DNA from: Antedon mediterranea
Lineage: Eukaryota > Animalia > Echinodermata
Assembly (NCBI RefSeq): GCF_964355755.1
Contig: NC_092677.1
Coordinates: 8,702,101-8,766,100, forward strand
Length of the DNA: 64,000 nucleotides
Direction of reading: 5' to 3'
The notes under the pieces were generated by a model. It was not told where the DNA came from. It made no database searches and was given only the letters and a program-made list of their open reading frames with translations. Each line of letters starts with the position of its first letter. Position 1 is the stretch's first letter. A program made the translations under genes and the position numbers. Positions 6,669-60,660 of this stretch are shown here, in pieces.

Positions 6669-9600
6669 TCAAACAATCGTAAACTCCTCAGTGTAATTGT
6701 CTGATGTATTTGACAGCTGATCCTGTGACAACATTTCGATTTCAATCTCTCCATTGCTATCTTCAGTGGAAACCTGTGGAGATCCTGAGAATCGTTTATG
6801 TCGACTACTTTTTGACGAACTAACAGTGTTTATGACTTGAGTAGAATTAAGTGCAGGGAATGATTGAGGTGACGGAGTTGATACTTGTCGACGTGGCCGA
6901 TGTTTCTGCGCTGACCGTGGTTGCTCTGGTTCACTCAGAAAACCTGTAAAAAAAATAACACAATTATATGTTTGATGGACATTTTCCTTATTAGTAGTAC
7001 TCAGAGAGGTTGTTGTCGGTTTGTTTTGGTCGACTATTAATTGTCAGTTTGAAATATAGTTTTCTTACCGTTGATTCTTGTTTCGTAATATCGCATACCG
7101 TCATTTAGTAGAATGCTGGAGTGATGATGTGAACGATCAGCGCATTCGTCTAACGGGCTGCAAGGCTGATCTAAGGTAGCTGAACGTGTTTGTCGCTTAG
7201 AATGCCTACATTGTTAAACAGATTGATAAATCATAACATATCGTAATTGTACGCATTTACTACCTTCCATAACCCAGCTAAGTTGATTAAGGTAAAGATA
7301 AATGTATTTATCGTTCTTAATTTTAAACTGAGGACATTTGGATTAGGTTCTCTGCGGACCCAAGGAAGCAAGCAACTCAAATCAACTCACTGTTAGACGA
7401 TCCCCTACTATTTTCGAATAGTATACGAAGTTCTTTAACGTGCGCTTTATCATTCAAACGCCGAGGGCCAACGGCTATTTGTCCTATCCCACTAGCATCT
7501 TGTATAAGGATATATTAATAATACTTCAAAATAAAAAATAAATAAAACTACACACACACACACCTTCTAGATTTGCCAGAACTTCTCTTAGATTTGTTAG
7601 ACGATTTTGAAGTTGGTTTCCGGGAATTTCGGTTCCCGCTTTTTGTGCGAGGTGGGCGATAGCATTTTGAATATCTGTCGTTTGCTTGGTCGTCGGATCC
7701 ATCACTTGAATGAAGTGTTTGACTTCTGATTATGCGCTCGCGTGGTCTAGCTCCTGTAAAATTACATCAAAATTAATTTCTGTATTTAGGAATATTTTAA
7801 TATACTTTCCGGAATTCATATTTTCCACATTGTTTTGAGGACATAGGCCTAAGTCACATTTTGGTGTTAGATTTTAGATTTTATACCAACTCTTGTTTTT
7901 CACAAACTATCCTCATCTCGACAAAAACCAATACTCCATGCAAGAATCGAACTCGAAATCCCTAATTTATTTGTTTCTTCCATGGTTTAACACACGACAA
8001 CTGTGCGCTAACCATTGGTAAGATCAGTAGCGGAAATAAACACCATTACAACAACTGACAAATATGCATGCTCAAGTAAATCCCACCAATGAACCCAATA
8101 TCCGGAACTTTTACGTACACAGGTGACAATCTAGCGGGTTGTTTGACAATCGGAAGGCAGCCGTGAATGAATTTTTTAGGCCTACCATACGGGAAAGTCA
8201 TGTTATCATGAAATCAACTATAGAAATGTTTAAAGAAATTGATGTAGGAATAATATATGATCTGAAGAAGGTTGTGCGAAGTTGGATATACCTACTTTTT
8301 TAGAAGTAGGCTAGGAGGTAAGCACTGTTATGTTATTCTGAGTGGCAGACAAGCCTAACAATAACACAGCAACGCCTGTATTAGCGGGCCTATGTAACGT
8401 ATGTGGGTATCAGGTGACGTGTGTTTTAGCTTTACCAACATGGGGAAATAAAACAATGACTTCGTTATAGCTTCATTTATGATATGCAAGCGTAAAGCTT
8501 ACATTTTAAACAGATTATTTATGTATTGATCGAGTATTTTCAATTTGAAGATCCGTTTTTTGTCGAGATCATTTGCGATGGAAATCAGTTTGAAGGCACA
8601 CGGAGTTAATACAACTCACTGGAAGGAGCAATCATAGATTAGGACCACTTTAGGGTTGATTTTTTATTTTACGACTACGTTACCTTGTTTATGGATCTCC
8701 CCAGGCGATGATGAATCTGTGTCAATGGGTGGATCCACAGGACTAACAGGAATTGTTGGAACGCTGTTCCAAATGCCATTGTCTATATCACTACTAGAGC
8801 TATGATGAGTATCTACACGCTTATACAATTGTGCCGATTTGTCGAATGATGAACAACGTTGTTGTTGAATTCTGTGACGTTGTTGCTCTTGGTTGTCTAT
8901 GGAATGTCTGCTTATTGATATATCTAGGAACAAAGCAATATTGTACGGTTTAGGAAATAACATTTAAAGGCAGGCAGGAATACAATTCTATTTTGTAATG
9001 GCGAAAGAACGTAAACGCAGGTAGTGGGAACCAATGTTAACACACGATAGGCCCTACGCAGTATTATAATATCCATAGGCCTAAATGTTTTGAACCAGCG
9101 TTTTTGTGGTAGCTCTATGCCCAGTATTATAATATCCATGAATGTTTTGAACCAGTGTTTGTGTGGTAGCTTTAGTAGTAAATCACTTTTAATATTAAGT
9201 TTTGTGTATTCTAATTGAAGTGGTCCCCGTATATAGACAAATTGGAATTTTCCATATTCATATTTCCTATTTGTAATAAGCTATACAGAAAGTTGTATTT
9301 GTAATGTCTACACTAACATATTTTTTTGTTGACCTGTTTGCTCACACTATCATAATCAAATGATGTCTTTAGTCTGATGTAGTAGGCCTTTTATAGTTCT
9401 TATACTTACTTGGTTTTGCAATGTTTGTGGTTCTGGACAGGTTGAGGTGGGCTGGTCTCTCTGGCAGTGGTGGTGGTTTTGATTTCTGATAAGCCGATAT
9501 TTTATCATACGTCATTACATTCCCTAAACAATTAAGAAATACAAAACTGCAGTACGGTATAGAAAGTATGTCAATTATTCTGATCATATTATGATTTATT

Positions 9601-12600
9601 TGGCCTGACATGGAGTACGAGAGACAAGGATAATCTAAAGCTCTGTCTACACTATCAAGCTCGTGTGACAACAAGTAAAATGTGCCAAAATATGGTAGTG
9701 ATCTGACGTATATTAACCTTATAAGGTTGTTCTACAACAAAATACACTAATATTAGATGATGTTTCATTGAATTTATTGTAGTATACTCACCTAGATGTG
9801 GATTGGATGATTACGTCATATTTTTAGAATTAATAGTGCGCACGGTAATAATCTAAGGTATATTTATAGTAGCCTAACTTTCGATTACGTACCGTTTTCT
9901 AAAAGTCTGCTTTGCGTAATGTTATGATACGGACTGGCACGCAAAGGGTACAAAACTCCACCTACGGCTCCTTGGGCTGGTTCTTGTGAGCTTTGGTATT
10001 GAAATGTTGTTAGGCTTACAGGGGAAATGCTGTTGATGTTGGGGTCACTCACAGGCAGATTTACAGAATGGCATGCATCTGATAACGAAAGGGGGTGCAA
10101 ATGAAATAAAAGAAAACCGAAATTCAACACATAAAACAGAAACCACACTCCGCCGGTTAGATGGCGGAGATTTCACCAAAAAGGGTTAAAAGCATCATGC
10201 AAAAATAATACAGTAGGCCATCATGGGAAAGCAAGGATACCTGAAAAGAATGCAAGCGATTTTTCACCGTCTTATTTAGCAGACGGTTACCAATCAAATA
10301 AAGGTTGGCAATGTAAATATTTAACATTAATACTGTCACACACTACTAACAATTATTTACATTAGGAAAACAACGACACAATTATACACATAATGTTTCA
10401 TGTTTCGTGGCTTGTGCTCGGTGGTGGTGGGTCGTGAAATGTGTGAAATGAGAATTGACTTGTTTGGTATACATTAAGTGCTTTTGGCGAATCACCCTCG
10501 AAAGACGAGGAACCATGCGGAATATCTGTGGAAAAGAACATTATATCTCCTTTAAACCTGTCTTGCACTAGGCGAAATTATTCCGCAAATGTCATCTACT
10601 AAACTTATTGACTTATTCCATTGATTTCATTTTCAGGTTTCTTGCATGTTTTATTTCACCGCACAAATTATATAGATTTTTCTTCTTATTTTAAAAGTGG
10701 TATCTATTATAATTTATCACCCTGTTCTACCATATTCTCTAAGTTTGTCATTGAACCTACCAATATCATCGTTTGGGGAAAATATCCAGTTTTTTGTTGA
10801 ATTATTTAAATTATTTAACGGTGTTCCTCCTTCTCCAAGAAAAGGCTCGTGTTCATATGGCGCTCCCGTATCTTCACGTCTGAATAAGAATTAAAAGTAT
10901 GTTAGGCTAACTACACGTAAAGTAGCAATAGCTTAATTTGTATTAGATTTCAGACTTAGGCTACGTTCAATAGGAGTCTGGTCTGGTCTGGTGGCCGAAT
11001 AAAAGCCACCGGACCTAATCTTGGTTCAATGTGAACTTAACTTTAGGCTTACAGATACTGACGATAATATCCTTTCCAACACACACAATGCAAAACTGTT
11101 ATTAGTCCGTGATGGAATAGATTTGATAACATTTGTTAAGACAATACAAATTTGATAATGAAAATATTTACCTAATATTTGAGTCAATGTCTATTGTCAT
11201 CATGCCACCTGCTGCAATGGTTGTCGCCTGTTTTGTTTTCCAATGATTCGTGTTTCTATAAAGTACTATCACAACAATACATAGTAGGATGAACACTATC
11301 AAGCCTCCTAAAACCGGTACAAATATCTTAGGGTCACCATAGTAAGGGAGTCCCTGTTCTTCGGGCTTATGTTCCAAAACCAGGGGAGGAACCGTTCCTG
11401 TAATAAAGAAAAAATTGCATAAATTCAGCTTTTAAAATTATATTTTAACAAGAGAAATAAGAGAGCTGCAACCTCAACCATCAGGAGAAAAAATATAAAA
11501 AGATACAGTACGTACGGCCTAAAATTAGCAAAGTCATATCTATCTTTAGTTTAAATGTGGTAAAGAACCGTCCTTTAGTTTTGGCGTTATATCTTGCTAA
11601 ACACGCACAAACAAATAATACCTCCAAGGCGGAGAGGTAATTATTAAACTTTCTACCAGTAATGTACAACTTATGATATGTATTTTCATCCAATGAAATT
11701 ACCTCCTGTGTATGAGATTGTTGCCACTGTTATTTTGTAAGGAGTTGCCCCGGCACTATTAACTGCTGTCACTCTAATATCATACCACGTAGATGGGTGT
11801 AATTCGTCAACAATAAACGTATCTGCGGGAGCCAGGATGTTGCTAGCCTTCGTCTTCCATTCGGTCTGACCAAATAACCGATACTGAATTGTGAAACTCT
11901 TTATTGGACAGCCACCCGAATCAAAACTTCGTAAATTTAAATTGACTAGTGTTGCATTGGTTTCCGTGAGTATCATGTCAGTAGATGGTGCAATCGGAGC
12001 TAATTGAAAAAAACAGAGAAAAATAATTTTTTTAGAAAAGCGTTGCAGGAATCTTTGATTTATACCTAAGTGTTACACTTTGTATAGGGCAGTATGATGG
12101 TGACATGAAACAAAATGAAATTGTCACAATACCTGTATAGTTTATATAGGTACTGTGTGCAGCTCTAGTTTTTAGTAGATATGTTTGTTACGTCGTTCGG
12201 ATGGGACGTAAAGTCGTTGGACCCGTGTATATACAATAAATAACAATAAACTTTTTCCATTTGAAAAAAAGTAAGGGATCGTCTCCTGGCTTAATGTTTG
12301 ACAACAACACATACAGATACCCACATTTGAAAGTTTAAACCATGTTAATGCCAGTTTAAATATATTAAGTACAATATCTGAACTAAATCGTACTTACTGG
12401 AACCATCTGTGTTAACTTTTACTTCGTTGCTATCATCGCTGGTTCCCAGTTTGTTCATAGAAGTCATATAGAAAGTATATGGTGTGCCGCACTGTAGATC
12501 CGTGAATATATAACTACGTCTTGTCGAATTTACGCTCACACGCTCCCAAAGAAAGTCGTTTTTCTTTTTATGGAATAGGGTAAAACCTGAAAATAAATCT

Positions 12601-15600
12601 TTCCTTATTAAAATGTATGCAAACATTTTCTTGATAAATACGTTCTAATGATATATTCTAAAATATGTAGGCCTGTCATTCTGTAATGTTTTAACATACA
12701 AGCTGAATATTGTAATTAAACAATGCACTTAATTAATTAAAAAATAGTAAATAAACTGATCAAATTTTGTTTATATTTATAAATTATACATATTTTCTTT
12801 TAATGTAGTAATAGTGAATAATTAGGAAATATATATAATAATTAAGAAAACATTAGGTACTAGGTATAGGCCAAAACATCAACATTATTATTAGTATTAA
12901 AGAGGATAAAAATGTGAATAATAGTGATGAAATTAACCTATTTATATTGCTTTTCCCTGGAATCTGAAGATCTGTCTTAGGTATTAGGCCTACCATGAAT
13001 TACATATTTTGTTTATCTTACCTAGTAAAACACTGCCACCATTGCTTTTAGATATCCAAGATACTTGAATACTCGAAGTAGTTGAAGAAACAACATTCAA
13101 TGTTGGTGGCGCTGGTGGAGCTAGTTAAAATACAAGCAATAGTTATTTCAAAATGTACTCAAATAAGATGTTAATGTAGGCATAATAAGACTATAACAAA
13201 CTCATTTGCAAAACTTAAATGTTGATTTCCAATACTGAATCCCCACATCATAGGTAGGCTACTAATAAATATACCAACAATAAGTTGCTTACAGACTACT
13301 AATAAATACACTTAGGAAAAACGCCGTATATCTTGCAGTTATATAGACAATTACAGTATGATACAGTATAAATAAGTGTTTTCCTACTTCGTGTAGTCAA
13401 CTGTTTACTACGGAAGTTGGAAAAACTTATTTACATTCACTAAAAGCGGATTATACTTTAATTTTCTACAAGATTAATGATAATCACAGAATAAATCCCA
13501 AAATAACTGTACATAAATATAACTAATATTTACCCAATGATATTTACAATTTGACAAATCGTGATAAAAGAAGTTATATTACCAGAATAGGTTCTAAAGC
13601 TAAAGACTTCGCATTTATAAACAACTTCCCAAATACAAAAACCACAATGAAAATCAATTGTACAAATTGTCATTTGTACTGTATATACATAATTAATTAT
13701 AATTTCTCAGACAATGGTAATAATGTTTCTTACACATTGTCTCTTATTTTACATTGTATAATTATACTAATCCACGTTGACCATTGAATGTTTATTAGAC
13801 TTGCAAAGCAAACGCTGAAGAAAGTAGATACCACATTATTCCTATACATGGAACACGTTCACAGAGCATCGCACCCAGTCGTTTTGCTGACACGCTGGTT
13901 TTATCAAATAGGCCTATGAATATTGTACATAAATAGGCTCCCACCAAACAGCCCATTGCATACTTATGCTGTGCAGATAAACCCAATATAATAAGTTTCT
14001 ATATATTGTTAGCTACAAAATCGAACAATATATTGAGATCTATCCCCAAAAAAATTAATTAATAGAGGTTATGAAGACAATAAAAATGTTTGCATGTTGT
14101 AAAATCCATTTAATTGAATTGAAAATTACTAATTTGAGATTACATTTCAATATTTTTGCGAACGTTTTAATTCGAATTATGCATCTTTGGTTTGTATTTT
14201 TTCCCCCACAATCTCATGATTAAATTAACAATTTAATAAACCACAAACACAGACTATCGGGGATCTGCTGATGTAAACATTTTTTTTAAAGAATAAATAC
14301 TATTATTTACCTAAGTGACCTTACTAAACACATGGTTGGCTTGGTTTAATAGTACAAAACCTTCTTACATACCAATACAAAAATATAAACCATGGTGCTC
14401 AACAGAAACCGGGAAAAATACTTGGCAAAATGCAGAGAGCGATAAATTGCGCGCTATTTAACCTTCCGGCACTACCATTATTATATAAATGGCTCTCCCT
14501 TCCGGTCATATTGAACTCGATATTTTATGATGTCATCAATATATCAATTTTCTTGAAAATCAATATTCTGGTTTGTTATTGTAAAGACAACAAAACACAT
14601 AGAAAGCAAGTAATACAACTGACATTTTGCCAAGTAGTTAGATTACAAAAAACATAACATCTAAAAGAATAAAAGAAGCGTGCACCAAGCTACCGAAACA
14701 AACTTTGTTCAATAATTCGTTACTTACTTCCTGATGGTTGTCTCACTACAAAATGCAGTAAATAAACGATTATGTGTGATTAGTCCATGCAAGTCACGTG
14801 AATAAGAAACAGAAACTTATCACAATAAGACATCATACATTAAACAATTTAGAATTGTGTATCGTACAGTTTTAATTTAGTGAAGAGTGTACAATCATGC
14901 AGTAGGGACATGCAGGCAGTTGTGATTAGGTCTTAGTAAATTTTAATTTAGGCCTAAAGGAAATATTATACAGTATAACGTAAATACATAATAATAGGTA
15001 GCATATAGTTATTTTACTAAGTTCATGTACGCTTCGGACATGAGTTTGTGTATCATGCAAAAACTTGGTTCCCACTTCGATGCAACGCAATGACGTAGAC
15101 CCAACGCAATGACGTAGACGCGACGCAATGACGTAGACGCAACACCCAATCGAGTTGACCAATCGCAAGCGACAGTTTGGGTGATTCTGGCCTTGTGATT
15201 CATCCAAACGTTCTAATGAGAACCAAGCTTAAGATGGTAAATTATTATCACATGCGGTTATTTGTCTAGTTTTTTTACATGCTGGTTCAGTACTGTGTAT
15301 ACTATATTCTATTATTTTCTTATGGTGAGTGTACTGTAGAAATTTAGACTATTCATATAATATCAATCCTTAATATTAAGTTAATTAAATCTCAAATTGT
15401 GTTACTGCAGAAATAAGTTTTATATTTAGCAAATTTAATTTATCAATCACCAACGATAAAGGTAAACTTTAGCGAAATGTTTTGAATGAATCTGATGAAG
15501 TGTGAATAAATTATAGCATGCACTATAGGCATACATTAGCAATTCTTTCAATTTTTTAAAATACAAATAAAGTTATTTACTTACCGAGAACATTTAAATG

Positions 15601-18600
15601 TATAAACAATTCTTCGGATAAACCCCACGTGTTTCTAGCTTCGCAAATATACTTGCCCTTATCGTCGGGCATTGTGTGGTAAATTACTAGCTCTCCAGTC
15701 GGCAGAATTCCATAATCTTCTCCTGGTGTTATCGGTTCGTCCACACTAAAATATTGGTAAATAGATTTTCTGTATGTGACATATATTCAAAATACATCAT
15801 TATTTGTTTAAAAATCACACACTACAGTATAGCAACATAAATCAACACAGTGCATTGACAAGACTTATATTCATCATCGATATTTCCAAATTTATTAACA
15901 GTATAGTGCTCAGATTTTCCAGTTACGTTTTGCAGACGTTTTGCTGAATTTTGTGCATACTAATTTATCATAAAGCATACCCCTCTTTTCGCCAGTGTAA
16001 ACTTGGCAAAGGATCTCCCACGGCCATACACTCTAACGTCACATCCGTTTTCCAAGTAACAGTCAAAGTTTTTGAAAATGACATAATTCTTGCTGGAACT
16101 GTGAAAAACCATGAAATACAATTTATTAAATTAAACTACAGATATAGATTGAATTAAGAAGACAAAATGCATTATAGAATGATTGTGGATTTAGATATGA
16201 ATTTGCAGCTTAAGTCTAGACTAATGTTGAATAATTCATCATGTTCTAACATTATTAAATACTAATGTTTAGTTGTTTGTTGCATTCGTTTAAGTCGACG
16301 GTTATTTCATTTTGGTTAAACATGAGGGTAGATAATTAACACATCATTTTAAGCTCTGTCTACAAACTAGTTTTTTAACGGGTGTATTGTGGGAAATAGT
16401 ATATACAATTACATCGGAAGAACTTATGACAAAACCTTAAAATTCGAATGAAACCCCGATAGCCAAGTTGTTGAGTAAGCTGGCAGGACTGTATAACTGT
16501 GCGCTACCTGTGTCCCACTAGGACCCTGAGATACTGCCCATGTTGCAAGCCGTCACTGTGTCACAGCTTGCAATACCTTCCCAATAAAACATCACTTAAA
16601 ATAATAATAATACTATTTTTAGTAGAATTGATCAGACTATTATCTACAATTTACTAAGCAATCATCTAAGGTTTTTTACGAATATCAAGCATTTCAAAAA
16701 TGCTGACCGACCGAAAATGTCCAGGCCAGAACCTCCTTCTAAAACCTTTTACCCGAGTCATTGTCATTTTGAGAACCTTCGTCTTCCTAGAGGGGAACGA
16801 GCGAAGCGACCTCACCCTCTAGTGATAACAAATACTTGTTAAATTTGAAAGACCTCGTACAGTACCTCTTGATAGTGGTATTTCTGTGGCAACATTGCTA
16901 GCTTCTCCTGGACCAATGATCGTTGCTGCTTTCACATAAAAGTCATACGCCTGTTCAGTCACCAAGTTATTTACCAGATAGTGTGTTACGTTGACATGTA
17001 ATGTGAAGTTTGACAAAATCTGTAATGAATATCAAACGTTATACACTGTAAAACGAAACTTGTAGAGCATCTTCGATATTATTAGCTTTGTCCTTTCAAC
17101 AGTTAGTTAAGAATTACTAATTATAACAAAGCATTTTTACAAACGATGGTTGTATAATGATTAAACCACTGTTACTTAAAATACCCAAAATCCTTTTTTT
17201 TTATTTTGATCTGATTATATTAATTTGATTTTAGAGGACGATTTTCTATTTCCATTCATATCAACATCTGAACTTTCTTCTACACTATCACACTTTTTGT
17301 GACAAAAATGTGATGTGCCCATATATAGACACGATGATGTCATATCACTACCATATTTGGCATCTCTCAAGGAACATTAAGTTAAAAGTGTTTCTAACTT
17401 ACTGTTTCACCATGTTTACTTGCTGTCATTGTCAGGATATATTTCTGCAGTATTCCGTTTATCTCTAAAGGTGGTTGCCATGACACCATTATGCTTGTGG
17501 GTGTGTGCGCATGTGCTTTGATGTCAGCTGGCATTGAGGGATCTACAGTATGAACAATTAAGAGACACTTAGAAAGCTGTTTTGTTAAATGTTACTCACT
17601 GATCAAATAATAATGTAATTATTTTTAAATAACACTTTATATTATTTTCATTGCAATCCCCATTATGACGTAATTCATCATTTGTCATTATCGTGTCATT
17701 TTAGGCAGTGTGATTATGTAGATGTAAAATGTTGATTATACAATTGAGTTTTTGTTAAGTATTGACATTTTTAAAATAGCTGAATTGTTTTGGTTACAAT
17801 TATTATATAAAAAATCATATTGATTTTTATTTGTATTATTACATACGGGTAATACAATGTTTTAAAAAATTCATCTGTGCGATATTGTACAACAAACATT
17901 CTAAATTCGTGTATTATTAACTAACAGTCTTGGTTTGTCATGATGTATAATTCGTCACTACGAACACCGTCTCCAACCCTTGTGAATGCCAGTACTCGGA
18001 TGCTATAATTGGTGAATTTCTCCAATCCAATCAGGTCTGTAGTAAGAGTTGTTGTCGTTTTTATCTGGAGATCAGCTTCATCTAAATAAATAAAACAATA
18101 AAAAAATATACATTTCTACTAACTCTCACTTTAGAATATTGTGAACCTCTAGTAAGGGTATCGTCGGGATCCAGCTAAAGGAGTATAACCTGAATATGAC
18201 ATGGCCTTAGTGTTTTTAAAACAATACAATTTTCCCGCTTTCGTTTCATGGGAAAATTATTATTATCATTAGGCCTATAGGATTTCCCTTGAATATAGGT
18301 GTCATTAAGTGGGATATCAACTGTACTACAAATCCGGCTAAGAGCTAGATTGCATGCAATTAACATACATATTTTATAAATTACTAGATTATTATCGACT
18401 TCAATGTGTCAGAGAAGAGAAATAATTTATTAAAAGAAAATATTAATTAGGCCTAAATGCAGTTGTGGAAGCAGTCCTCGCAATCCGCTTGAACCTTTCT
18501 ATCATTTCAATTATTTAGTTATACCTTCATCTGCTCTGATTGGTTTGTAGAAAACCTTATATCCCTGTAAGATACCATAGATAGAGTCCAGAGGTAGGGT

Positions 18601-21600
18601 TGACCACATCACACGTATGACGGTGGAGCCTAGAGGGGTCGCTTGCACAGATGGCGGGGGCTCACTAGGAACTAAAGGAAAATATATTGAATTACTATAA
18701 CAAAAATAGCTTTAATATATCTGTCCATTTCGTACATAAAGCTTACATGGATAAAACATCAATAGCCAATTATTAATATTACTAAAGTATAAAATGTATT
18801 TAATATTATTCTCTATAAAATGGTGTGGTCCAGTTGTATGCTAATGGTTGCTTTTGATTGAATTGAAAGAAAGACGACTAACAATACAGGAAATAGAAAA
18901 ATAATAGTAGGTTTGTAAGAGTGTACACTAACTCATAATAAGGCAAAACCATCACTAAAAATATCTATAGATATATAACAGTGAACTTTATATAATATAA
19001 CTTAATGAAGCTACATTGTTTGGTCAAAAATCTAAAAAAGCTTACCATCTTCAAAAGTAGTAATTTTCTTTTGTTGCGACCACGGTCCCGAACCTATTTC
19101 GTTAAATGCTGCAATTTCCACAGCGTATTCCGTAAACTTCCGAAGTCTATCGAGAGTATATGATTCTATGTAGTTCGTAATAGATGACGTCATGACAGAC
19201 TGGGATGGAGTGGATGAACCGACTTCTTTATATCGAATGTGGTATCCTAAAATGTCTCCATTTTGAAGATCAGCTCTTGGTTGCTGTAATGATTTAATTC
19301 ATATTTAAAATGCATTTACCAAATTATTTAAATAATTTCAGCAAGGAGGTATATTTATTATTTGTTTATACGATGGTTACAAAGATTCAGCAAAAATTGT
19401 TATAGTAATATAATTATTAATATAATATACGTGATACTAAAATGTTTAATGCACTTACTCGCCAAACAAGCCGTACTGAGGTTGAACTAAGAGCAGTAAT
19501 CTCAATATTCAATGGTTCTCCTGATGGTACTTTTTGATTGAAAAAAAGAAGAAAAAGTTTGATTTTACCAATTATTCTTTCAAATGGTATAAAACTGTAA
19601 TTGTTACAAAATTTAATATCCGACTCAAATCCACCTTCATGTCATTTGTAAGAATTTTTCACAAAATTTGAATTGTTTAAAAAGAACTATAGTGTTCCTG
19701 ATGGCATCTTTTTTATAATAAATATTTTAATAACCTTCTGTAAGTTGTTCAACTCTGTATAGTTTAGTCATATATATGTTCTGTTTATCTGTTCTCGAAC
19801 AATAAAACTACATGTTCGAAAACATTAATCTTCATGATCAAAATTTCATTTTTTTAAACAAAATACTGTATTATGTAACGATTTTATTTGCCATAAAATG
19901 TAACAAAAACTTCATTCCGTAAACTTTACTATCACTTTATTGTACATGTTAATGGTATAATTACATTTCATGATTCATGTCTGTGTTTATTTATAACTTC
20001 CTTAAACTTTATGGAATCGTAGGCCCATGATTTTAAAAGTGTAGTAACCTTAAGGAGATATATGTAAAATGATAGCATACATTTATATGCAGTCATCGAT
20101 CCAATGTTGATATTAAATATCTTTTTATTTAATATTTTCTTATCTAAAAAACTCTGAAATCATACATTGGTCAAAAGTCGAACTTCGGGTTGTCGTTACG
20201 ACTTGTTAACTGCTTTATAAATTACAAAGCTTTGAAGCCGTTACTCGGATTTTCCAGCCAGCATTTCTTTTCTTTTTCTTAATAGATAAGCATATTAGTG
20301 CATAGGTATTTCAATGGGAAAATATGTTTTGACGATACCATTGTGTAACGCACATTGCAAATATGATTAACATACCTTCTTCAAGTGTTTTTATAAGTAT
20401 TTCGTCACTGTATGGACTTAGGCCGATAGGGTTAAAGGACTTGATCCTAACAACGTAGACATACGCAGGATGGAGCTCCGTCACGGTGTATACCAGCTGT
20501 GACAGGTTTCCCAGAATATGAACCCGGTTTACACCTCCTTGCCAAACATCTGTAAAGAATGTTAGAAATATGATGTTCCAACATTGTTAGAAGAGGTATT
20601 TGTATTTATCTAAGTTTCTGGCCCTTAATACATTTATTTATCTATAATTACCAGAGTCGTTCTTGTATTCAATAGTGTGGCCGGTTATAGGACTGTTGCC
20701 ATCGAAGCCAGACTCCCAACTAATAGAAAACGATCTGCTGGTTACCGCAGTTTGTTGCAAATCAATCGGGCATTCTGGTGGCTCTGAAATCAATATTTAT
20801 TTGAAAAAAACATTTAGATATATCCCATAATACAGTTATAAATCCAAAGGCAAAATACTGAAAATATGACAATGCTGTGGGTATCAGTGGCTGGATCTCA
20901 ATGGAGATACAAAATGACAATGCTGTGGGTATCAGTGGCTGGATCTTAATGGAGAAACAAAATGACAATGCTGTGGGTATCAGTGGCTGGATCTTAATGG
21001 AGATACAAAATGACAATGCTGTGGGTATCAGTGGCTGGATCTTAATGGAGATACAAAATGACAATGCTGTGGGTATCAGTGACTGGATCTTAATGGAGAT
21101 ACAAAATGACAATTCTGTGGGTATCAGTGGCTGGATCTTAATGGAGATACAAAATGACAATGCTGTGGGTATCAGTGGCTGGATCTTAATGGAGAAACAA
21201 AATGACAATGCTGTGGGTATCAGTGGCTGGATCTTAATGGAGATACAAAATGACAATGCTGTGGGTATCAGTGACTGGATCTTAATGGAGATATAAAATG
21301 ACAATGCTGTGGGTATCAGTGGCTGGATCTTAATGGAGAAACAAAAAAAAAGAACATCATTTTTGTGCATTTCAGACTTCTTAATTATTAAGACTATTGT
21401 AAAACTATATTGACCATTTCGTACCCTTAGTACTATAATTAGATAATATAGTAGAAAAGCATGTGCATAATTCCAATCCATTTTCCAAATTATTTCGGCA
21501 AGAACAATTTATTTAGGTGTTTTTTTTTCATCAAATATTCCAATATGGATGAAATGATATAAATAAATTAAATTAAAATATTAGATTATCAACCTAATTA

Positions 21601-24600
21601 TTTAATTTACCCAGAATTGTAAGATGAATAGTAAGGCTATCAGAACCATAACTATTGCTAGCTTGGCACGTGTAAACAGCGGTGTCGCCTCTAGATGTCT
21701 TGAGAATCTTTAATTTGGAGTTCACCACATCGCCTTGTACAGTGGTAATAATTTGATAAGCGGTCCCCGAAAGACTTGTGTATATAAGATCATTTTTAAA
21801 CCAGTCAATTTCCAGAACACCATGTCCATCCGGGTTACAGTCCAAGATGACTTCTTCATTTAGATTAGCGGTCAAATTGATCTCCGAGATGTAAAATCTA
21901 GCTGGAACTGTAAAAAATGAAAAAAATTTGTATAACATTTTTACAAAACTGTTCTACACGGAGCCCCGTAGCTACAGTGAGTTATACTACGTGGCAGGGT
22001 TTGGAACATTTGCAAATTCCACAACATTAAAGACTGTGTGTAGTGAGCATGCGCGAGTAGAGACAACACCTAACTTTTACACGCAGGGAAAAAGATCTTA
22101 AATTCAGACTAAAGGTAATATATAGCCAACAAACTCTACTATTTTTAAAAGTTGTATACACTAACTAAAAGAAGACTGCATGATGGCGACTAATAGGCCT
22201 ACTAGGGCAAATACTAAATCAATTGACTTAACAAGAAAAACTAGACCCTCCGAAAGTCTAGAAGCAGATGATCCAATCGAAGCCTCCGGCGACCGACAGG
22301 GGGAAACTCAAACGCTCGCCGATCAACTAGGTAGGCTATCAGAACAACTTAATGGTAAACTAGATAAAGTCCTAGAAAATCAAAAAAACTACAACAAAAG
22401 GCTTACCAAACTGGAAACAACTGTCAAAGATCTAGAAAAAAGTGTGGAATATGCGCATGATTCAACTAACAAAACGAAGGAAGAAATAAAAAAAATTGGA
22501 AATGAAATCAAGAAAATGGAGGAGTATGAAAACAAAATGGCGGCTTATCAGGATAAAATGGCGGACATGGAAAATTCAATCCTAAAACAAGAAAGATACA
22601 GTAGGAGTTTTAATCTAAGGTTTGGAGGAGTTATAGAAAATGCTACAGAAAACACCCAGGACTTATTGCAAAAAGTACTACGCGAAGAACTCGGACTCGA
22701 GGACATCGAAATTGAAAATTGCCATCGCACCGGGAAACGCCGTTTAGATAACAAACCGAGGCATATAATAGCTAAATTTCTGTACCGTCCACAAAGAAAC
22801 CAAGTCCTAAAACTAGGAAAAGTAAAATTAAAAAGTAAATCACAAAACGTATTTATTACTGAAGATTTACCTGACGCGGACATGAAGAAAAAGAGAGAAT
22901 TATCTACAATTATGGCGCAGGCATATGCCGAAAAACGTAAGCCCGTATTCAGAAATGGACAACTGTTTATCGACGGTAAGCCATACAAGCCACTAAAATA
23001 ACTATAATTAAGTCATTAAGCCAAATTAATTAATGTTCAATTGAACACAATTAATTAATGTTTATGAATTATATTTCATACCTACATTACCGCAGAGTCT
23101 ATCATTGTCTTGTAGAACGTAGACTAATTATGTGATTGTAGTAGTATTTCTACCGTTATAAATTGTAAATAAACGAAGTTTGTTTGTTTATGTCGCGCAC
23201 CTGGCTGTTAGTGTTATGTTCTGGATATCTCTGTCCATTCAAACTTTAATTCATGTGACCCACGGCAGGTGTGCGACGATAGTGTTACATAATGAGAAAT
23301 ACCAACAACAATTAAGTGGCTGTTGACGATGTAAGTTTCAACGTAGTTGTTTACCGGTTATTCATCGATGAGTTACTGGGTTGATCAAACTCGTAAACGT
23401 TAAACACATCGTTTTAATGAAACACAACACAACTAAATGTATTTAAGTTATACTATCCGTACTTTACTAGTGATATATAATGACAAATTATAACAACATT
23501 AAGTGGCTGATGTGATTAATAAGTGAGCGCCGTTATTGAGACATCATGTTCTAGACCGTTTCAACGTAGCTGTTTACCGGCGATGTTTGACTTAACAGTG
23601 AGTAACGATAACTTGCCATAATAATACATTCTGGACATCGGTGAGTTAGATTGATCAAAATCTTTTAAGTTAACCAAATACTTAATTGGCGTCCATGATC
23701 ATCATTATTGTTTCACTGCCTGTCGTTTAGTTGTTGTTGGTATGTCATGATAAAACAATTCATATTACATTGTATATATTGTAATTTATTGTACATACTT
23801 GTTAACTTAGGCTATTATGTGTTAACTATTCTCTGCTGTAAGCAGCTTGCTCAATTTTATTCATTTGTCATTTTCTTTTCTGTCTAATTTAAATGTTTGA
23901 ATGTGACCTTTTTGATAATGTAAATGTGAGCACAGAATATTTTAACGAAGATAACTTAATTTCTTTACTTGAACATTCTAATTTATCATCAAACTTTTCT
24001 ATATTTGGACTAAACTGTCGTAGTGTTGTTAATAAGTTTGACTTAATCTCAAACTATTTAGACTCACTCGTACATGCCTTCTCCGTTATTGCCTTCAGTG
24101 AAACCTGGTTAACCGAAAAAGATAATATTAATCTATACCAGTTACCAGGCTACAGTTTGATTCACAATGATAGGAAAGATAAGAGAGGTGGTGGGGTAGC
24201 GTTCTATGTTACCAACAAACTAACATATATTATTAGAAATGATCTGTCATCTTGTATGACTGAAGCAGAGACTATTTTTATTGAGATTGAGTTAGAATCA
24301 GGAAATAATGTTATTTGTGGTATAGTTTATAGACCACCCTCACGTTCCTTGCAAAAGTTTGATGATGAATTAACATGTGTAATGCAAATGATTAATCTAG
24401 AAAAAAAGAAAGCTTACCTTGTGGGAGACTATAACATAAACTTACTCCAACAATCTACCGACAACACTATCCAATCACACTTAGACACAATATTTTCTCA
24501 GTCATTTCAGCCAATCATAAAAAGTCCTACTAGAATATCCGATAATTGTGCTTCAATAATTGATAACATTTATTGCAACATCGATTCTTTTACTACGTCC

Positions 24601-27600
24601 CTTAAAAGTGGAATACTTATTACTGATATTTCTGATCACTTCCCAATATTCTGTGTAGATACTTTGGAAAAACATAATAAGCAATATCCTCGATTTGTAT
24701 ATAAACGACAATACTCTCCTCAACAAACGGAGTATTTTTTGCAAGAATTACAAAGTAATCAGTGGAATGATGTGCTATTCTCAAATAATGCGAATGTTGC
24801 TTATCAAAATTTTACAAACACTTTAAATAAAACAATTGATAATTGTTTCCCTTTAAAACGAATTAGAAATAAGGCGAACAAGTTAAAATCTCCTTGGATC
24901 ACAGCTGAAATTGCCAGAGCTATCTCTCAAAAACATAAATTATATAAAAAGTACAAACAAAATAACACCACTACTAATAAAAGTACGTACATACATTTTA
25001 GAAACAAGTTAACCACTACTATTAGAAATCGGAAAAAAGAATATTATATGGTCCAGTTTGAACGAAATAAACAAGATATTAAAAAAACGTGGACAATCCT
25101 AAATGATATAATGGGTAGGAAAAAGACTACCAATTTGCCTACAAAAATAAAATTGGGTACTGAGACTTTCTCTGATAATGATGAGAAAGCTGATGCATTC
25201 AACTCTTTTTTTATTAATATTGGAGAAAAACTAAATAATAAATTTAGGCATGAATCTCAAAATGAAGAAATCACCCACAGAACTTTCTTAAAGGGAAATT
25301 TTACCTCTTCAATGTTTTTTAAGCCTGTTACTGAACATGAACTTAACCACTATATTAAAAACACAAAGAATACTTCTCCTGGCCATGATGGTATAAGTGC
25401 CCAACTCATAAAATCTGCTTCCCCGTTTATTTTAAAACCTTTATTGCATATTATTAATACGTCATTATCATCGGGCTGTGTCCCGGCTGATATAAAAATT
25501 GCTAAAGTTATCCCGGTATTTAAGAATGGTGACATCTCCGATATAAATAATTATCGGCCTATTTCCATTTTACCCCTTTTTTCCAAAATATTTGAGAGGA
25601 TTGTGTATGATCAAACGATTTGTTACCTCTCAAAATATAACGTACTGAGTAAAACACAGTATGGATTTAGACAACACCATTCAACTAGTCATGCTTTAAT
25701 ACAATCGATTGAAAAAATCACAAACGCTATTGAGAATAAAGAGTTCACACTAGGAGTTTTCCTTGATTTATCAAAAGCGTTTGATACAATCGATCATGAT
25801 ATATTATTAGATAAGTTAAGATTTTATGGTATAAGAGGAGTTCCGCTAAACTGGTTCTCAAACTATCTTAAAAAAAGACTACAATACACATTTATTGTTA
25901 ATACTGCATCTAGTAAAATGAGAGTAAACACTGGAGTTCCTCAGGGATCCATATTGGGTCCATTATTATTTCTTATATTCATTAATGATATTAGTCTAGC
26001 ATGTAACCATGTAGACATGATTATGTATGCAGATGACACAAATGTGTTTTATAGTCACAATGATATTACTCAAGCTTTTGATACAATGAACCAGGAGTTA
26101 TCTATACTTTCGGACTGGTTTATTGCTAACAAATTAACGCTAAATGTAAACAAATCAAAATATGTTATATTTAAGGCTAGAAATAAGTCAGCTGACACTA
26201 CCTCACTAGAATTGAGGATGGGAAATGAATGTATAGTAAAAGCTACTGAAGTTAAATTTCTAGGCTTATTTCTGGATGAAACTTTATCGTTTAATTTTCA
26301 TGTAAATGAGGTAGCAAACAGTATTTCTAGAATAATTGGTGTCTTAAACAAAGTGAAGTCTATGTTATCAAGTAAAATCTTGTTAACGGTATACAATGCA
26401 CTTATATTACCTAGAATAACGTATGCTATCACAGTATGGGGTGCTACTTCTGCTACAAACTTAAACCGTATACATATTCTCCAGAAAAAAGCACTTAGAA
26501 ATATTTGTCATGTTCATTTTATGCATCCTTCTCATCCACTTTTTATTTCAACCCAAACATTAAATATTTTTGACCTTTATACAAAACACACTGCTATATT
26601 TATGTATCAATATAAACATAATCTATTACCTGAATCATTTAATAACTTATTTAGTACATCTGCCTCATTCCATAATTACTCAACTAGAAACAGGTCAAAC
26701 TACTGTCCACAACTAAAACGCACCAAAGTCGGACAGCAATGTATTTCCTACCAAGGAACACATATTTGGAACAATTTAACAGACTATATAAAACAATCCC
26801 CCACTTTAAGTTTGTTTAAACAGAGATTAAAGCAATATTATAACAATAGAAATATTTAAGTTAAGTAAATCACATTATGTTATTTTGGTTTGTTCTTTTT
26901 GTTTGTACTAATTGTTTGATTTTTTTGTTAGGGTTACATGCTTAAAGCACTTGTGCTTATTTTGTATCCCATTCCATTATCTTATTATTTGTATTGTATT
27001 TGTATATGTTTTTATTTTGATTATGGAATAAAAATGTCGATGAAATTGAAAATTGAAAAAAACAACTCCCCAAACGTGGCAATTCTCTCGAACTCTTTTA
27101 ATTACCACTGTTAACCTTTATCCTTTTATTTTTTTTTCTATTTACTATATCACCTCATACGTGCCATTTATCTAATCAAAATCATCCATTTTATAGCATA
27201 GTGACATAAAAAATAAAGAGTCCAAAGGCGCCAATTAAATGATATAGTTCCCTGAACTATCAGACATAGGAGTAATATACTTAAGGATCTTTTATTTTTA
27301 CGGTTCTAATTTAGTTTCTAATATTTTGGCCAAATATGGTATGGTAAAAAATAATTGATACTTTGTGTCGTACTACACACTATTCATAGAAAGGCCTATA
27401 TTATAGAAAGTAATATTGTCCATATAATTTGTTATTAACATGATCATAAACAATATAAATCATCGCTTTGTGGAGTTGTCATGTGATTGCTTGCGTGTAT
27501 ATTGACAATAAATAAAACGTGTTTAAAACTTATGCTACGAAATCGGTAATTACAATTATGCTGGTAGATATTATTTTTTTATTTCCATTCTTTTACATGT

Positions 27601-30600
27601 AATATTCTATGGTTGTATTTTTTGAAGAATTGAAATGAAGGATTGGTTTTATTTATTTTATTTTATTGTATATCTTTGTCACATGTGGATTGGATTTGAT
27701 TTGAAGATTATAAAATTAAATATTATGTAATTACTACATACCTATATTATGGTATTATTTTAGTATACATCAAATAATTTGTAGATTTAAGGTTACTGCA
27801 GTTGTAATACATTTTTGTGACCATGTTTGTTACCTTAATTATTTAGGAAGAAGCTTCTTTGAGTTTATTGCAGTTACTGCCTTATAAACTTCTATATTGA
27901 AACTATAACTAAGTTATTGCAGTAAATGTACTTACTGCAGTAACTGCAGTAGGATAAATTTGAGAGTGACTTACTGTAAACAACAAGCAATGCAGTACGA
28001 CTATCTTCTCCACGTGTGTTATTAATGCTGCATAAGTACCGCCCATCGTCGTCTTCTGTTGACTCTTTTATTACAAGATCTCCGTTTTCTTTCACTGATA
28101 TCCTGTCATCTTCCTTTATTTCAACAAAGTTGGATCCTGCAAAATCTGTTTAAAACGTATTTGATTTAATTGAAAAACAATTGCCTTTTTTGTACCTGAC
28201 TTAAGTTAAATGTTAAAATCACTAATATTAGTTTCGCGGCGGATGGAGCATGCTATAACTTTAACCCAGTAAGGAAACACATTCGGTACCCAAAAAGCTG
28301 CCCTTTTGATATGGATGTCCTCTGAATATAAGTTAACACAGTGTTAACATATAACACATCGCCCTTTGTTCGTTTCACATGAGTGAAGTGTAAAGTGTCC
28401 CCTAAATATAATGTCAAAAGGCGTATGCATTGAATATCATATATAATAATATTATAAAATGATCATACAGTGAATCTTTTCTGATAATAGTTGAGAGTTT
28501 AATTGGGACATAATGATTGTTATTTTAAGATAATTTAAAATTAGGCTTACACCTAAATACATTACCTAATGTTCGTTTCCACGTTATGTCTGGTTCAGGA
28601 TAGCCACTAGCATTGCAATGCAGTGTTGCTGTGTGGTTTAATATAACGTTTGTATCAACTGGATACACAATAAACCTGGGAGGAACTATAAAATAATTTC
28701 AACGTTGTTTTAATATTTAAACAGATTTTTAAAAATTTAAGATTCATATTTATTGATTGAACCAACTTCATACAAAAAGTGGCTAAAATACAAAAATAAA
28801 TAAGATTTAAAAAATAGGACAAAATGCCGGGAGCGACAGCGCACTATTAATATTTCGGCATAATATAGTGAAAAATACAGGGATCTCGAGATTTTGTGAC
28901 GTCATCAACCAATAGGCATAGTTTGTTGGTCCTCCTCAACAAAAACAACGATTCGAAACGAATACATGAGAATGGTGTAACGTGCAAAAGAAATATACAA
29001 ATAGAAGAAACATAACAGAGATGCATACCAAATATGAATATTTCATTTGTATACGTGACGGTTGCAGCACTGTTGTTCGCAACACATGTATAATTTCCCG
29101 CCAAATCGGTTGTTACGGCATCAGTATATATCATACTGCTTGTACCAACGTTTTGAATTATTAGGTCACTGCTAGCTGGTATAGGATGTTCGTCTTTTAG
29201 CCATGAAATTGATATTGGTGTGTCTCCACTGATAACTGAACAGAACATTTGCATTCGGTCTCCCTCCGACAAGTGCATCTTTGGCATCTCTCCTATTTTC
29301 GGTGGTACTAACATTGACAAATGAAAAATATTGCGTTACTCATTGCAATTGAATGTATTAGGTCTATTCAGTAAATTCCCAAAATAAAATATTGACGCTC
29401 GCATTAGATCTATACTCGAAAATATATACAGTAGGCCTATAGCAGTTAGTATACGGTTACAGAGCTTACCTAACACATCTATATACACGCTTTTTCTATC
29501 TGACTGTCCGAGTCCATTATCAACTTCACAAAAATATTTTCCTTCGTCCGATCCTTTTTTGACGTTACTAACCACCAATGTGCCGTCTGCTTCGATCGTC
29601 TGGCGGTCATTTGATGGCAGAAGATCATCGCCCTGGTACCATCGGATGTTCTCAATTGGATAGCCTGTAGCAATGCAGCGGACATCCATAATGTCACCAG
29701 CAACAGCAGTCAGGTTCCTGAAATTTCTTATCATAGGTGCACCTGTCAAAGAAAGAATAGCTCAGTTAAATTATTGGTACAGAGTAAGCCTGATGCAATG
29801 GAACAGGCCTCCGTTCCACTGGCAACATCAACTGATAGCAGAATCAGAAAGGTCAATATGTGCATCAGGTAATGACAAAAATAAGAGTAGTTTGTATTAG
29901 TGGACTTTTAAATGCGTATTCGTGTCAAAATAGAAATGTTGAGAAAGAGAATCCAATTTTGTCAGTATGTATATTATTCAAATCGTTATTTATTTCAATT
30001 GTTCTTACAGCTAAAAACTAAAGTATGATAATCGTTACACAATGTTTAAAAATTATATATAGGCCTATATATACTAATAATAATATAATATTATGGTCAT
30101 AATATGTATTATTAATTTGGTTGTGGCAGGTGTTGGATGAATAAACACTTTTTACATATCTGTGATGCAAGTAACCATGCAACTTAACATCGTTTTCTTT
30201 ATTAGATCGATATATTTATTGTATATAATCAGTCATATAGAGTCATAAGTGGTCAATATGTATTATTAGTCATTAGGTTTATTTACAAAACCTTGATTCA
30301 ACTTACCATATATATTTATCCTAGCCTCATAGTAAACTTCCCCGTTTATATTCGTTGCCTGGCAACCGTAAGTTCCACCATCTTGAACTTTGGATCTTGT
30401 AATATTTAAGTAACTCACTACATCTCGATCACCGTTTATTACTTGGTTTATGGCGATGCGTTTGTTTTGGATAACCTGTTCATCGTCCAGATACCAAGTT
30501 ACAGTGGGAGATGGATTACCAGCAATTATGCACATTAGGTGGATGTCTGGACCCGGATGGAGAAGCTCCTTTTCAAATCCATCGACAATAGATGGAGCAG

Positions 30601-33600
30601 CAGCTATATGAAATATAATAGCCATAATATACAAAACAGCACATTCATTGTTGAAGAATAGGTTTCTGGACAACCAAGATTATTAATTTAATTTTTGTTT
30701 AAGTCACGGAAAGTTTTACTACTAAACCATTCTTTCTTCTAAATTATGATAATACAATAATGTTGTTTTTTGGAAAGCGAATATGTTAGAAGCTTACAAA
30801 TTTGAGAAAATAGGACAGGATTTATTGATATGAAAACTATTTTTCCTACCACCGAGTGACAATTGCATAGTTGCTTCCTGGAATTCCCATCTGTTTCCTG
30901 CTACACATTGATACATTCCCTGATCACCTCTTCTCATCTCATCCACCATCATGGTCCCATTATCAAAAATAGTTACTCCTGGTAGACCGTCCAATAACGT
31001 TGCGTCTTTATACCACGTGACCGTATCGATAGGATGACCGGTGACGGAACAGTTAAAGTACGCGGAGTCACCAATATCAACGGTTCGTTGATGAGGATAG
31101 AAATACACATGAATAGATTCTGAAAAAAAAAGTTACGTATCACAATAAGTCTATATTTTATTCACGAATTGTTTGATTTATTTCAAGATATAGTGTGTAG
31201 AACTTTGGAGATTTTTCTAATGAAAAGGTCCTGAAGATTTTTTAAAATATATAGACCTAGCTTACCGTACTTATTGTCGGCTATTCTTCCCTTTTACTCA
31301 CCTCTTACACTTAAATGCACATTCGCAGTTTCTGTTCCAATACTATTTGTAACTTCGCATGTATAATCTCCTTCATCAGAAATACGAATATCTCCTATTA
31401 CAAGATTCCCACCACGCATGCTCATTCGAGTTTCTTGATCAAGATTGATACCATTCTTCCTCCAAGAGTAGGATGGTGACGGGTAACCACTTGCAACGCA
31501 CGGGATCTCAACCGTTTCACCAACCTGACTTGTCAAACTGGCCTGACTGTTAATGACACGAGGTCTTGCATTCACGGGGTCTGGAAGAAATACATTGCAT
31601 TCATACTTTGGCATTATCTTGCTAAAACAAACTGGTTCATTCGTAATTAGCAACATTATAACATAAGACAAGCCAGATGATCCGTATGTTGCGTGTATTT
31701 AAGGAGGAAAATGAATTAAGCTAAACTTTACTATCTTACATACCCACTACAGTCAACGTAGCTTGTGCTTCAACGTTGCGTCCAATGAACGTATCTCGTA
31801 CGTTACAACGGTACGTAAATTGTCCATCCTCTGACGTCAGTTCACGTATATGCAGCTCACCAGTTTGAAGAATACTATAACGTCCTCCTAAAACATAAAA
31901 TGCATTGTATTGATAATATTGAATTGATTTTCATAAGATCTAACTATTTAAGTTCTCACGCACAAATTGGATGAGGGACTCATTTGGTCGAAAAGCTATT
32001 ATATTATGGAATTCGTTATCGGAGGATGTAGTAGCTTCAAGATCAACCAATCAATTTAAGTCCGGTCTTGAACGGGCATGGTCCAACCACCCTCTTAAAT
32101 TTGCGCCATATTCAAGAGTTGATGTAATTATCAAGAGGGGCTTATGGGCATAGCCTAGCCTCGAATCCGGACCCAGCATTGCTGAGCTTCGGAAACAAGT
32201 AAACAAGTAAGTAAACTATTTAACAAACCAAACTTTTTGTTTTATATTAGTTATTATTTTTGAGTAATCGCACTTTAAAGGCGTCATGTCAGTACAGAAT
32301 GTCATATTTCCAACGGAATTAAATTGTTAGATAATTGTTCCAAGTTCTATCAAAATGGTAATCAATGGCAATTGCTGATATTTTAACATTTATATTGGCC
32401 TAAATAACGTGCTCTACCTGCTTCAATTTGAATATTGTCTCGTGTCCATGACGTCACCTCAACGTAGTCTTTGACAAAACTTGGTATATCACATTTGAAC
32501 ACAACTGTGTTTCCGCGCATGGCAACCTCATCGTGTAGTGATATGCTGTACGACTGTGACGGAACTGAATAAAAGAAAACAATAGTATTTTACAAAACAT
32601 TATGTATGGGGTTCTTATTGTAGGTAAATGTTGTATAAATACAGTGAATATCTATACACATCGATATAAATGTAAACACTTTTGTGAAAATAACCTTCCT
32701 GGTTACTTACGCCGGCTGTCTCAGATATTCCGCGAAAGATAAATTTGAAAACATTTTAGTCGAACTATATAATTTGTTTCTATCTTTGTCCTCGATCTTT
32801 CACTATGTACAAGTTTGCTGACAATCCTCTTGAAGTGTCTGTGTGTTCGGGCTTGTGTGCCCTGTGCCCGCGAAAAATACTGTGAACACTCACTTGAGGG
32901 CAAGGGATCACACCCTTATTACATGCAACCATATTATTCTTCTGGTTTAAAACTTTAAGTTAACTAAAACTTTGATTTAGACTAGAAGTCATGCATATAA
33001 TAAGCTATATTAGAACTCTGTTTTAACAATGCGATTCAGGGGACATCCCTTCGGGTATTGTGTTGGGTATACTCCGCACTTCTACAAATCTTGTTTCTCA
33101 TGATGTATGTTGTATTTCTATTATTCTTCTACTGTTCATATAAACTATAAAAAAGTAATAGACGTGTCTCTTGAACAGATATTGGCCGTAGTGTGCAGTG
33201 CTAAAACGTTTTGCTTCACTTTTCACACGTGAAAGTGTCCTCAAATGAAAGGTCACATTTCAGAGTTTTTTTCTTGTAAGTGCCGTCTAAGATCTGTCTA
33301 CACTAAAAATTAGTTTGACAGAAAATAGTTTGATGTGCCCAAATACAGTAGTGATGTGCCCAAATACGCTAGTTATGTGACGTTCATATTATTGGTACAT
33401 CACTATTTTTTCTGTGTAGACAGAGCTTTAGTGGGCTCTTTACGCACTCATGCAGAAAGTAGGCCTACACGTTAAAACATTTTAATTAGGCTTGAATATT
33501 AATTTGGTTATGCTAACACTGATATTTGGATATTTAATATAATTAGGATAGCCTATTCGAATAATTACTCTAATTAGATCTATTGAACTCGCCGCATACA

Positions 33601-52978: not shown

Positions 52979-53071
<93 letters not shown>

Positions 53072-60100: not shown

Positions 60101-60445
60101 AAGATTGGGGTCACTAGGCGATGACTAATACAATTCTGCTTGAAGATCAACTAAAATCTTTTTCTCTAAAATAGAACATTCATGATCTCATGTTTGCGCA
60201 TTTTTCACGTGCCGAGAAGTTGCTAGAAATATTAATACGCATGCGTACTAAATCAACGCTTACAATGCCGCGCAAAGAAGTTTGCTTAGAGAAAACAAAA
60301 ATGCAAAAGAGGTAGAGTATAGAAAAACAGGTTGGCACCTCAAAATAAAATTAAAAACTAAGGCCTCAATCATGTCTTTATTGGTGAAAATCCCAAGTAA
60401 CATGTATAAATACGTGAGTAGCATAATACCGGATATGCCTATTAA

Positions 60446-60660
60446 AGCTTGGTTCCCACTAGAACGTAACGCAAGGACGTAAACGCAACGCAAGCGTGTT
60501 GACCAAAGACAAGCGAAGTTATAGACAGTTAGCAATCACAAGCGAATAAGCCATCGCTTGTGATTGGTCAATTCACTTGCGTTGCGTTACGTCCTTGCGT
60601 TGCGTTACGTCCTTGCGTTGCGTTGCGTCCTTGCGTTGCGTCGCTAGTGAGAACCACGCT
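60446..60660. mobile_element. MITE family B (TIR AGCTTGGTTCCCACTAG), PIF/Harbinger-like with TAA target duplication
   Basis: TAA|AGCTTGGTTCCCACTAG ... CTAGTGAGAACCACGCT|TAA, with internal TTGCGTTACGTCC repeats. Other copies at about 15061-15229, 35870-35976 and 3776-3880. Confidence 0.82.

Follow-up and report, generated by a model that had tools for sequence, protein, structure and literature searches.

An 18-nt cassette microexon at the Ig10-FN5 joint of Dscam in Antedon mediterranea, with inserts at the same place in other echinoderms, a snail and locusts

The stretch of Antedon mediterranea DNA that was analysed (64,000 nt, hereafter the window) contains a Dscam gene on the minus strand. 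Our own exon model of this gene remained open across the ectodomain and the transmembrane segment, and it was 99.8% identical to RefSeq XP_071958859 from A. mediterranea over 1644 aligned residues. The protein of RefSeq isoform X1 could be placed exon by exon on 37447-6672. Judged by its domain layout and orthology, the gene is a member of the Dscam family. The top match of the host protein among solved structures was Dscam Ig1-8 (3dmk), and none of the 34 matches was a solved Dscam structure covering Ig10-FN5. With 34 exons masked, tblastn searches with fragments of eight Dscam proteins detected no extra Ig or FN exons within the gene, all the matches being located in the neighbouring gene at 52.7-56.9 kb. 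Since no duplicate exon was found in the masked gene, it has no arthropod-style arrays, as had been proposed in an earlier reading of this DNA made from the sequence alone (the sequence-only reading). The tandem Ig2, Ig3 and Ig7 exon arrays by which Dscam-hv is recognised are thus lacking in Antedon. Word-index protein queries with single exons, which covered proteins of up to 2000 aa, returned no Dscam match. The features discussed below are listed in Table 1.

Table 1. Dscam features in the window, in the order of transcription. Offsets are counted from the start of the 18-nt exon.
Feature	Position	Strand	Remarks
Host Dscam coding span	6670..40983	-	9 Ig, 4 FN3, Ig10, 2 FN3, TM, tail; single-copy exons
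Upstream exon, second half of Ig10 (Ig10b)	15585..15745	-	100% to isoform X1 aa 1328-1380
TGCATG	15517..15522	-	at -777, ~62 nt past the Ig10b donor
TGCATG	15054..15059	-	at -314, edge of a dispersed repeat (15060-15109 matches 60444-60493)
Two TGCATG	14896..14914 (starts 14896, 14909)	-	at -156 and -169
TGCATG (Rbfox consensus)	14786..14791	-	at -46, two bases ahead of the branch-point motif; predicted site
Branch-point-like CTAAT	14779..14783	-	at -38, within the 68-nt AG-free zone; putative branch point
UGC, eMIC-type motif	14755..14757	-	at -12..-10
Cassette microexon, 18 nt, phase 1-1	14728..14745	-	spliced in contig; RefSeq isoforms
Downstream exon, first part of FN5 (FN5a)	13022..13120	-	100% to isoform X1 aa 1388-1420

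Several other features of the window were recorded. Two Dscam N-termini are annotated: isoform X2 starts from a separate exon at 40983 (-), which has a short hydrophobic run, and isoforms X1 and X3 begin at 37447 (-) through an upstream extension of the Ig1 exon, in which no obvious signal peptide was seen by eye. An alternative last coding exon at 10400-10525 (-) closes RefSeq isoform X4 (1738 aa) and gives it a much shorter cytoplasmic tail. Near this exon TGCATG occurs at 10196 and at 10072, the latter where the next exon begins, and a contig of sequencing run X1 (see below) spans 10050-10292 unspliced. The FN4 exon contains a GT at 17419-17418 (-), 17 nt before the donor in use past 17403, and the use of the distal donor after 17403 (-) fits both the length of the contig and RefSeq. 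About eight 60-nt units repeated in tandem (~20870-21340) lie in the intron after Ig9 and showed very high repeat depth in run X1. A probable LINE-type retroelement (~22100-26600) is found on the opposite strand, in the Dscam intron 27974-21908, and we take a sequence near 25935-25952, read by eye, to be its GVPQGS-like reverse-transcriptase motif. The neighbouring gene (~50760-57150, -), co-oriented with Dscam and upstream of it, encodes a multi-Ig single-pass membrane protein that presumably resembles nephrin/Kirre.

The intron of interest (15584-13121) separates the second Ig10 exon from the first FN5 exon. The Ig10b exon matched the Pfam I-set below the curated cut-off, being half a domain. 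The sequence-only reading had placed a cluster of microexons in this intron, and the coordinates, motifs and stop-free translations that it gave there were all recovered. The 18-nt exon, TGAGACAACCATCAGGAA at 14745-14728 (minus strand), is flanked by tgtag and gtaagt. Using splice-site matrices trained on the 27 exons of Antedon Dscam itself, it ranked 8th among the 1555 intronic AG..GT pieces of 3-30 nt that were scored. Five sequencing runs contain the region, and run X1 alone acts like RNA, in that its contigs skip GT-AG introns; the record has no RNA label and gives no tissue, and the RNA status was judged from these intron-skipping contigs. Contig record 3 of this run (1467 nt, depth 9.9) joins the end of Ig10b, the 18-nt exon and FN5a with no other letters. 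Its bases 1360-1378 correspond to 14728-14746 and its bases 1379-1467 to 13032-13120, with no mismatch in either piece, and its loose end is the last 30 nt of the Ig10b exon. As the contig joins these pieces without letters between them, the 18-nt exon is spliced. In a short sample, the run X1 individual had four differences from the window in the 161-nt Ig10b exon and none in the 18-nt exon.

The RefSeq cluster comprises four isoforms, three of which (X1, X2 and X4) include the 18-nt exon and one of which (X3) skips it. Isoforms X1 and X3 differ solely by this exon, and the sole difference between XP_071958858 (2076 aa) and XP_071958860 (2070 aa) is at the Ig10-FN5 insert. The Antedon skip form is that of a predicted RefSeq model, and no skip-form contig was listed in run X1, from which absence is not implied as contigs omit rare forms. 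The 18-nt piece is an alternative cassette microexon, with both forms given by RefSeq annotation, and its inclusion turns L-A-PPAPP into L-VRQPSG-T-PPAPP. The earlier proposal of an 18-nt phase 1-1 exon was thus correct: the contig has the exon spliced, the annotation treats it as alternative, and it makes the Ig10-FN5 joint longer. The +18-nt junction product expected from it was seen in both the run X1 contig and the RefSeq isoforms.

Two more pieces of the same intron had been proposed as coupled frame-shifting microexons that would give +42 and +48 nt forms. Both were rejected as exons. The 13-nt piece (14311-14323, -) ranked 79th out of 1555 and the 17/11-nt piece (13583-13599/13593, -) ranked 88th and 120th, and they were found neither in contig record 3, which spans the intron, nor in any of the four RefSeq isoforms. 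In their favour, both pieces are bounded by AG and GT, no stop interrupts the joined frame, and the donor of the 13-nt piece has a score of 8.4. It is also the case that contigs omit rare variants and that one run cannot prove absence, so that the lack of listed cover at 13583-13599 in run X1 does not imply it. However, their acceptors scored only -0.8 to 1.7, and the AG-free zones of the 13-, 17- and 11-nt pieces were 14, 5 and 4 nt, compared with 68 nt at the 18-nt exon. AG..GT pieces as good as these occurred at 3.9 per kb of intron. Stop-free frame-restoring pairs of such quality numbered 7 in the Ig10-FN5 intron and 10 and 142 in two other long introns, although these counts are not independent since the pairs share sites. 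Because equally good pairs are common, the coupled pair is a chance expectation. Moreover, the insert at the Ig10-FN5 joint never exceeded 7 aa in 20 aligned Dscam rows, and a 151-nt unspliced run X1 contig that passes the 13-nt acceptor by 5 nt argues weakly in the same direction. We consider coupled frame-shifting microexons to be highly improbable here. The idea that linker microexons diversify this ectodomain held for one 18-nt exon with two forms but not for a cluster, the other pieces being at chance level, and instead of the +42 and +48 products the contig and the isoforms had the +18 sequence. Antedon Dscam gains two ectodomain forms in this way, and hence no replacement for the arthropod arrays.

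The cis code of fly eMIC exons consists of a UGC, a CUAAY, a long AG-free zone, a weak 3′ site and a UCUC-rich pyrimidine tract, according to the available sections of PMC8797185. The 18-nt exon has the UGC close to the 3′ splice site, the CUAAY and the long AG-free zone. In the 27 constitutive exons, CTRAY was present in 3 and a UGC at -22..-7 in 5, with both together in none. The AG-free zone of 68 nt compares with a median of 35 nt and was exceeded in 4 of the 27. The UGC by itself is a weak signal. The acceptor scored 4.4, against a median of 5.8 for the acceptors of the gene, no UCUC tract was seen by eye in the 40 nt upstream, and the donor is a perfect gtaagt. As the acceptor fits the fly eMIC code save for the UCUC tract, neuron-restricted inclusion is the likeliest control. 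The missing UCUC-rich tract speaks against this assignment, as does the listing of only the included form in run X1.

All five TGCATG motifs that had been noticed upstream of the exon on the transcribed strand were confirmed (Table 1). They are contained in the 839-nt upstream intron, where none of 5000 dinucleotide shuffles produced five (mean 0.34). At least five in 839 nt were obtained in none of 150 whole-window shuffles, and random placement of 21 sites in 64 kb gave at least five in some 839-nt window in 43 of 20000 trials. The upstream cluster is beyond chance. No TGCATG was present in the 1607-nt downstream intron. Upstream Rbfox sites lead to skipping under the position rule described in the accessible part of PMC5840707, and the portion available of PMC4317164 reports Rbfox motifs to be enriched downstream of human microexons. 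The Antedon exon differs from the human ones in having all five motifs upstream. With every UGCAUG upstream and none downstream, the position rule therefore predicts skipping and not inclusion; the arrangement is, by motif alone, that of an Rbfox-repressed exon and not that of an Rbfox-enhanced one, for which UGCAUG would be downstream.

Rbfox repression might then be the main control: inclusion would be the default, and cells rich in Rbfox, such as muscle, or neurons would skip the exon. This would agree with the UGCAUG cluster being the strongest statistical signal, with the presence of the exon in the sole form listed in run X1 and in three of the four Antedon isoforms, and with a perfect gtaagt donor and an acceptor that, at 4.4, is barely under the gene median. 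Nevertheless, we think this unlikely, as the UGC, the CUAAY and the 68-nt AG-free zone match the eMIC code and both motifs were never combined in the 27 constitutive exons. Dscam is mainly expressed in neurons in other animals, and bulk RNA would mostly show the neural form if Dscam were chiefly neuronal. In addition, several relatives are annotated in the skip form only.

The best explanation, to which we assign a probability of about 0.65, is a single 18-nt cassette that encodes a six-residue linker and is switched on by eMIC in neurons and off by Rbfox elsewhere. In neurons, an eMIC-type Srrm protein would be able to define the tiny exon by means of its UGC, its CUAAY branch point and its long AG-free zone. 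In skipping cells, Rbfox on the upstream UGCAUG motifs, one of which adjoins the branch point, would block recognition of the 3′ splice site. By lengthening the Ig10-FN5 joint, inclusion may change how far the membrane-proximal ectodomain reaches or how it is angled, so that there would be two receptor forms. The 18-nt exon supplies a testable eMIC/Rbfox reporter for echinoderms.

The nature of the linker was considered in structure models. In an AlphaFold2 model of the snail Littorina protein, built from the 20-row alignment, the mean pLDDT was 87, and the insert (639-644), which follows the final strand of Ig10 and precedes the first of FN5, was one of two segments below pLDDT 50. The same joint scored pLDDT 89-90 in a model of an insert-free Dscam. 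The two models are of different proteins, neither of them from Antedon, and their pTM values are low (0.43 and 0.39), so that domain angles are unreadable. The prediction is that inclusion of the exon ties Ig10 to FN5 through a flexible linker of six residues, and that the two domains abut when it is skipped.

Inserts at the Ig10-FN5 joint were found in 8 of 21 Dscam rows and were absent from 12, and one row (Cordylochernes) was retained in the count as not aligning. This count excludes P0116, P0151, P0037, P0079 and the non-Dscam matches, which do not span the hinge or are not Dscam. The insert reads VRQPSG-T in Antedon, VSHPTG-T in Anneissia, VRRPIG-S in the sea stars Patiria and Asterias amurensis, VGDHTG-T in Littorina and ESRSKG-I in Schistocerca locusts (two rows), all of 6 aa, and VVNRTKG-T (7 aa) in the urchin Diadema. 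Two more Schistocerca proteins, beyond the aligned rows, also carry it. Every insert ends in Gly, and beyond the length, the last Gly and the phase there is little sequence in common. Pairs of isoforms that include and skip the insert were found in Antedon, Patiria, A. amurensis and one Schistocerca species, and in the last three the difference consists of the six insert residues only. All 12 insert-free rows begin FN5 with A, V or D, the codons of which start with G. The end residues, as read from codons, fit a phase-1 cassette, and on this ground a shifted donor or acceptor was dismissed as the origin of the inserts in relatives. Relatives were compared at the protein level, and exon boundaries and phase outside Antedon are putative. 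At the protein level, then, deuterostomes and protostomes share the position and the length of the insert, the phase being deduced from codons. No other ectodomain insertion of at least 4 aa was common to more than two of the 20 aligned Dscam rows. Rather than a direct Ig10b-FN5a junction alone with no conservation, the data comprise an 18-nt junction and a protein-level insert in relatives.

No insert was present in the models, one each, of Saccoglossus, Gadus, Astyanax, Strigamia, Watersipora, Acanthaster and A. rubens. For the last two, both forms exist in the close relatives Patiria and A. amurensis, which means that one model can miss the exon. A tree of 20 rows, with one row per isoform set and Sidekick as the outgroup, backed crinoid, eleutherozoan and arthropod groups, but its deeper forks stayed open and it cannot settle exon homology.

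Mini-exons in hinges are known from meA/meB of the LAR-family phosphatases, exon 2 of L1CAM and VASE of NCAM. Like the Antedon exon, they add a few residues in or between Ig/FN domains and tune geometry and binding; unlike it, they act in membrane-distal, ligand-binding Ig domains, whereas the Antedon insert is membrane-proximal and far from the solved Ig1-8. eMIC microexons resemble the Antedon exon in being shorter than 30 nt and frame-preserving and in having the UGC, the CUAAY and the long AG-free zone. Microexons at the hinges of neural adhesion receptors and those of the eMIC type are both kinds that are already known. A 12-nt exon in fly Dscam1 is located downstream of an exon pair that, by size, we take to be the transmembrane exons. 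It belongs to the same gene family but is found in the tail, and the Antedon exon is at Ig10-FN5 and is without the UCUC tract. This fly exon (DmeEX0004097) is of the class eMICsens in the sections available of PMC8797185, and none of the 55 Dscam rows covered, out of 68 in the supplement of that study, was an 18-nt exon. The accessible part of a fly microexon catalogue holds three Dscam rows, of 8, 12 and 15 nt (PMC8042270).

Arthropod Dscam1 arrays are of the same family and share the domain layout and alternative splicing of the ectodomain, and in the available text of these accounts no optional exon at Ig10-FN5 is described (PMC6851185, PMC1397879, PMC3364881). One of these papers assigns a single isoform to each of fly Dscam3 and Dscam4. 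In contrast to the arthropod arrays, Antedon Dscam has no duplicated exons and two ectodomain states only. Nothing on an Ig10-FN5 exon appeared in the parts available of PMC10803435, PMC13281805, PMC12992808 and bioRxiv 2026.04.14.718097. The literature searched, the scope of which ended short of exon-catalogue databases and preprint supplements, contained no description of a Dscam microexon at Ig10-FN5 and no match for an 18-nt Dscam exon, and on eMIC microexons in echinoderms (sea urchin) it yielded general papers only. The automatic RefSeq models already contain the exon, unremarked, and it yields two forms only.

Neural microexons ancestral to bilaterians have been described in APBB1/2/3 (6 nt) and MADD (9 nt), and in the main text available of that study Dscam receives no mention, although its datasets may list the exon (bioRxiv 10.64898/2026.09.05.749416). 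Like them, the Antedon exon is a short in-frame exon at the same position in deuterostomes and protostomes. The APBB and MADD exons belong to proteins that act in signalling inside the cell, and both vertebrates and insects retain them, as that study requires. The Antedon exon, unlike them, is extracellular and is lacking in the two fish models.

The exon is very likely homologous across echinoderms and probably also across bilaterians. We lean towards a single bilaterian origin of the Ig10-FN5 insert and regard the 18-nt exon as a candidate bilaterian-ancestral microexon. Alternatively, the echinoderm exon could be old, and this phase-1 intron could have gained the snail and locust inserts in separate events, as a hotspot tolerant of short Gly-ended linkers (type I convergence). 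The partial text of bioRxiv 10.64898/2026.09.05.749416 gives such an origin some credit, as neural exons there often arise repeatedly in corresponding regions of orthologous genes and just two neural exons among 20 bilaterians were confidently called ancestral. For comparison, four same-position eMIC exons are shared between fly and mammals in the available sections of PMC8797185. The spread of the insert is patchy, with one mollusc and one insect lineage possessing it and hemichordate, fish, centipede and bryozoan models without it, and the deep forks of the tree remain open. Convergence has more difficulty with the identical position, length (6 aa, or 7 in Diadema) and last Gly across three phyla, and with an ectodomain that has no other shared insertion. 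Absence from a single model is also weak evidence for it, given the sea stars Acanthaster and A. rubens, which lack the insert while relatives have both forms. We rate independent origins as a serious possibility, though one short of even odds.

The fullest version of the inherited exon is tentative: a neural microexon from the last common bilaterian ancestor, acting as a two-state switch in the Dscam stalk that would predate the arthropod arrays and would have been lost in vertebrates. If this were true, echinoderms, molluscs and an insect Dscam that is not hypervariable would have retained an ancestral exon. It would be the first extracellular addition to the very few such cases, APBB and MADD, and it would have been overlooked because current criteria demand a vertebrate copy. 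As deeply shared microexons are rare, the exon of the crinoids, sea stars, urchin, snail and locusts offers a test case for inheritance against hotspot convergence. It suggests that the ancestral Dscam may already have had a spliced ectodomain, contrary to the usual view of non-arthropod Dscams as invariant.
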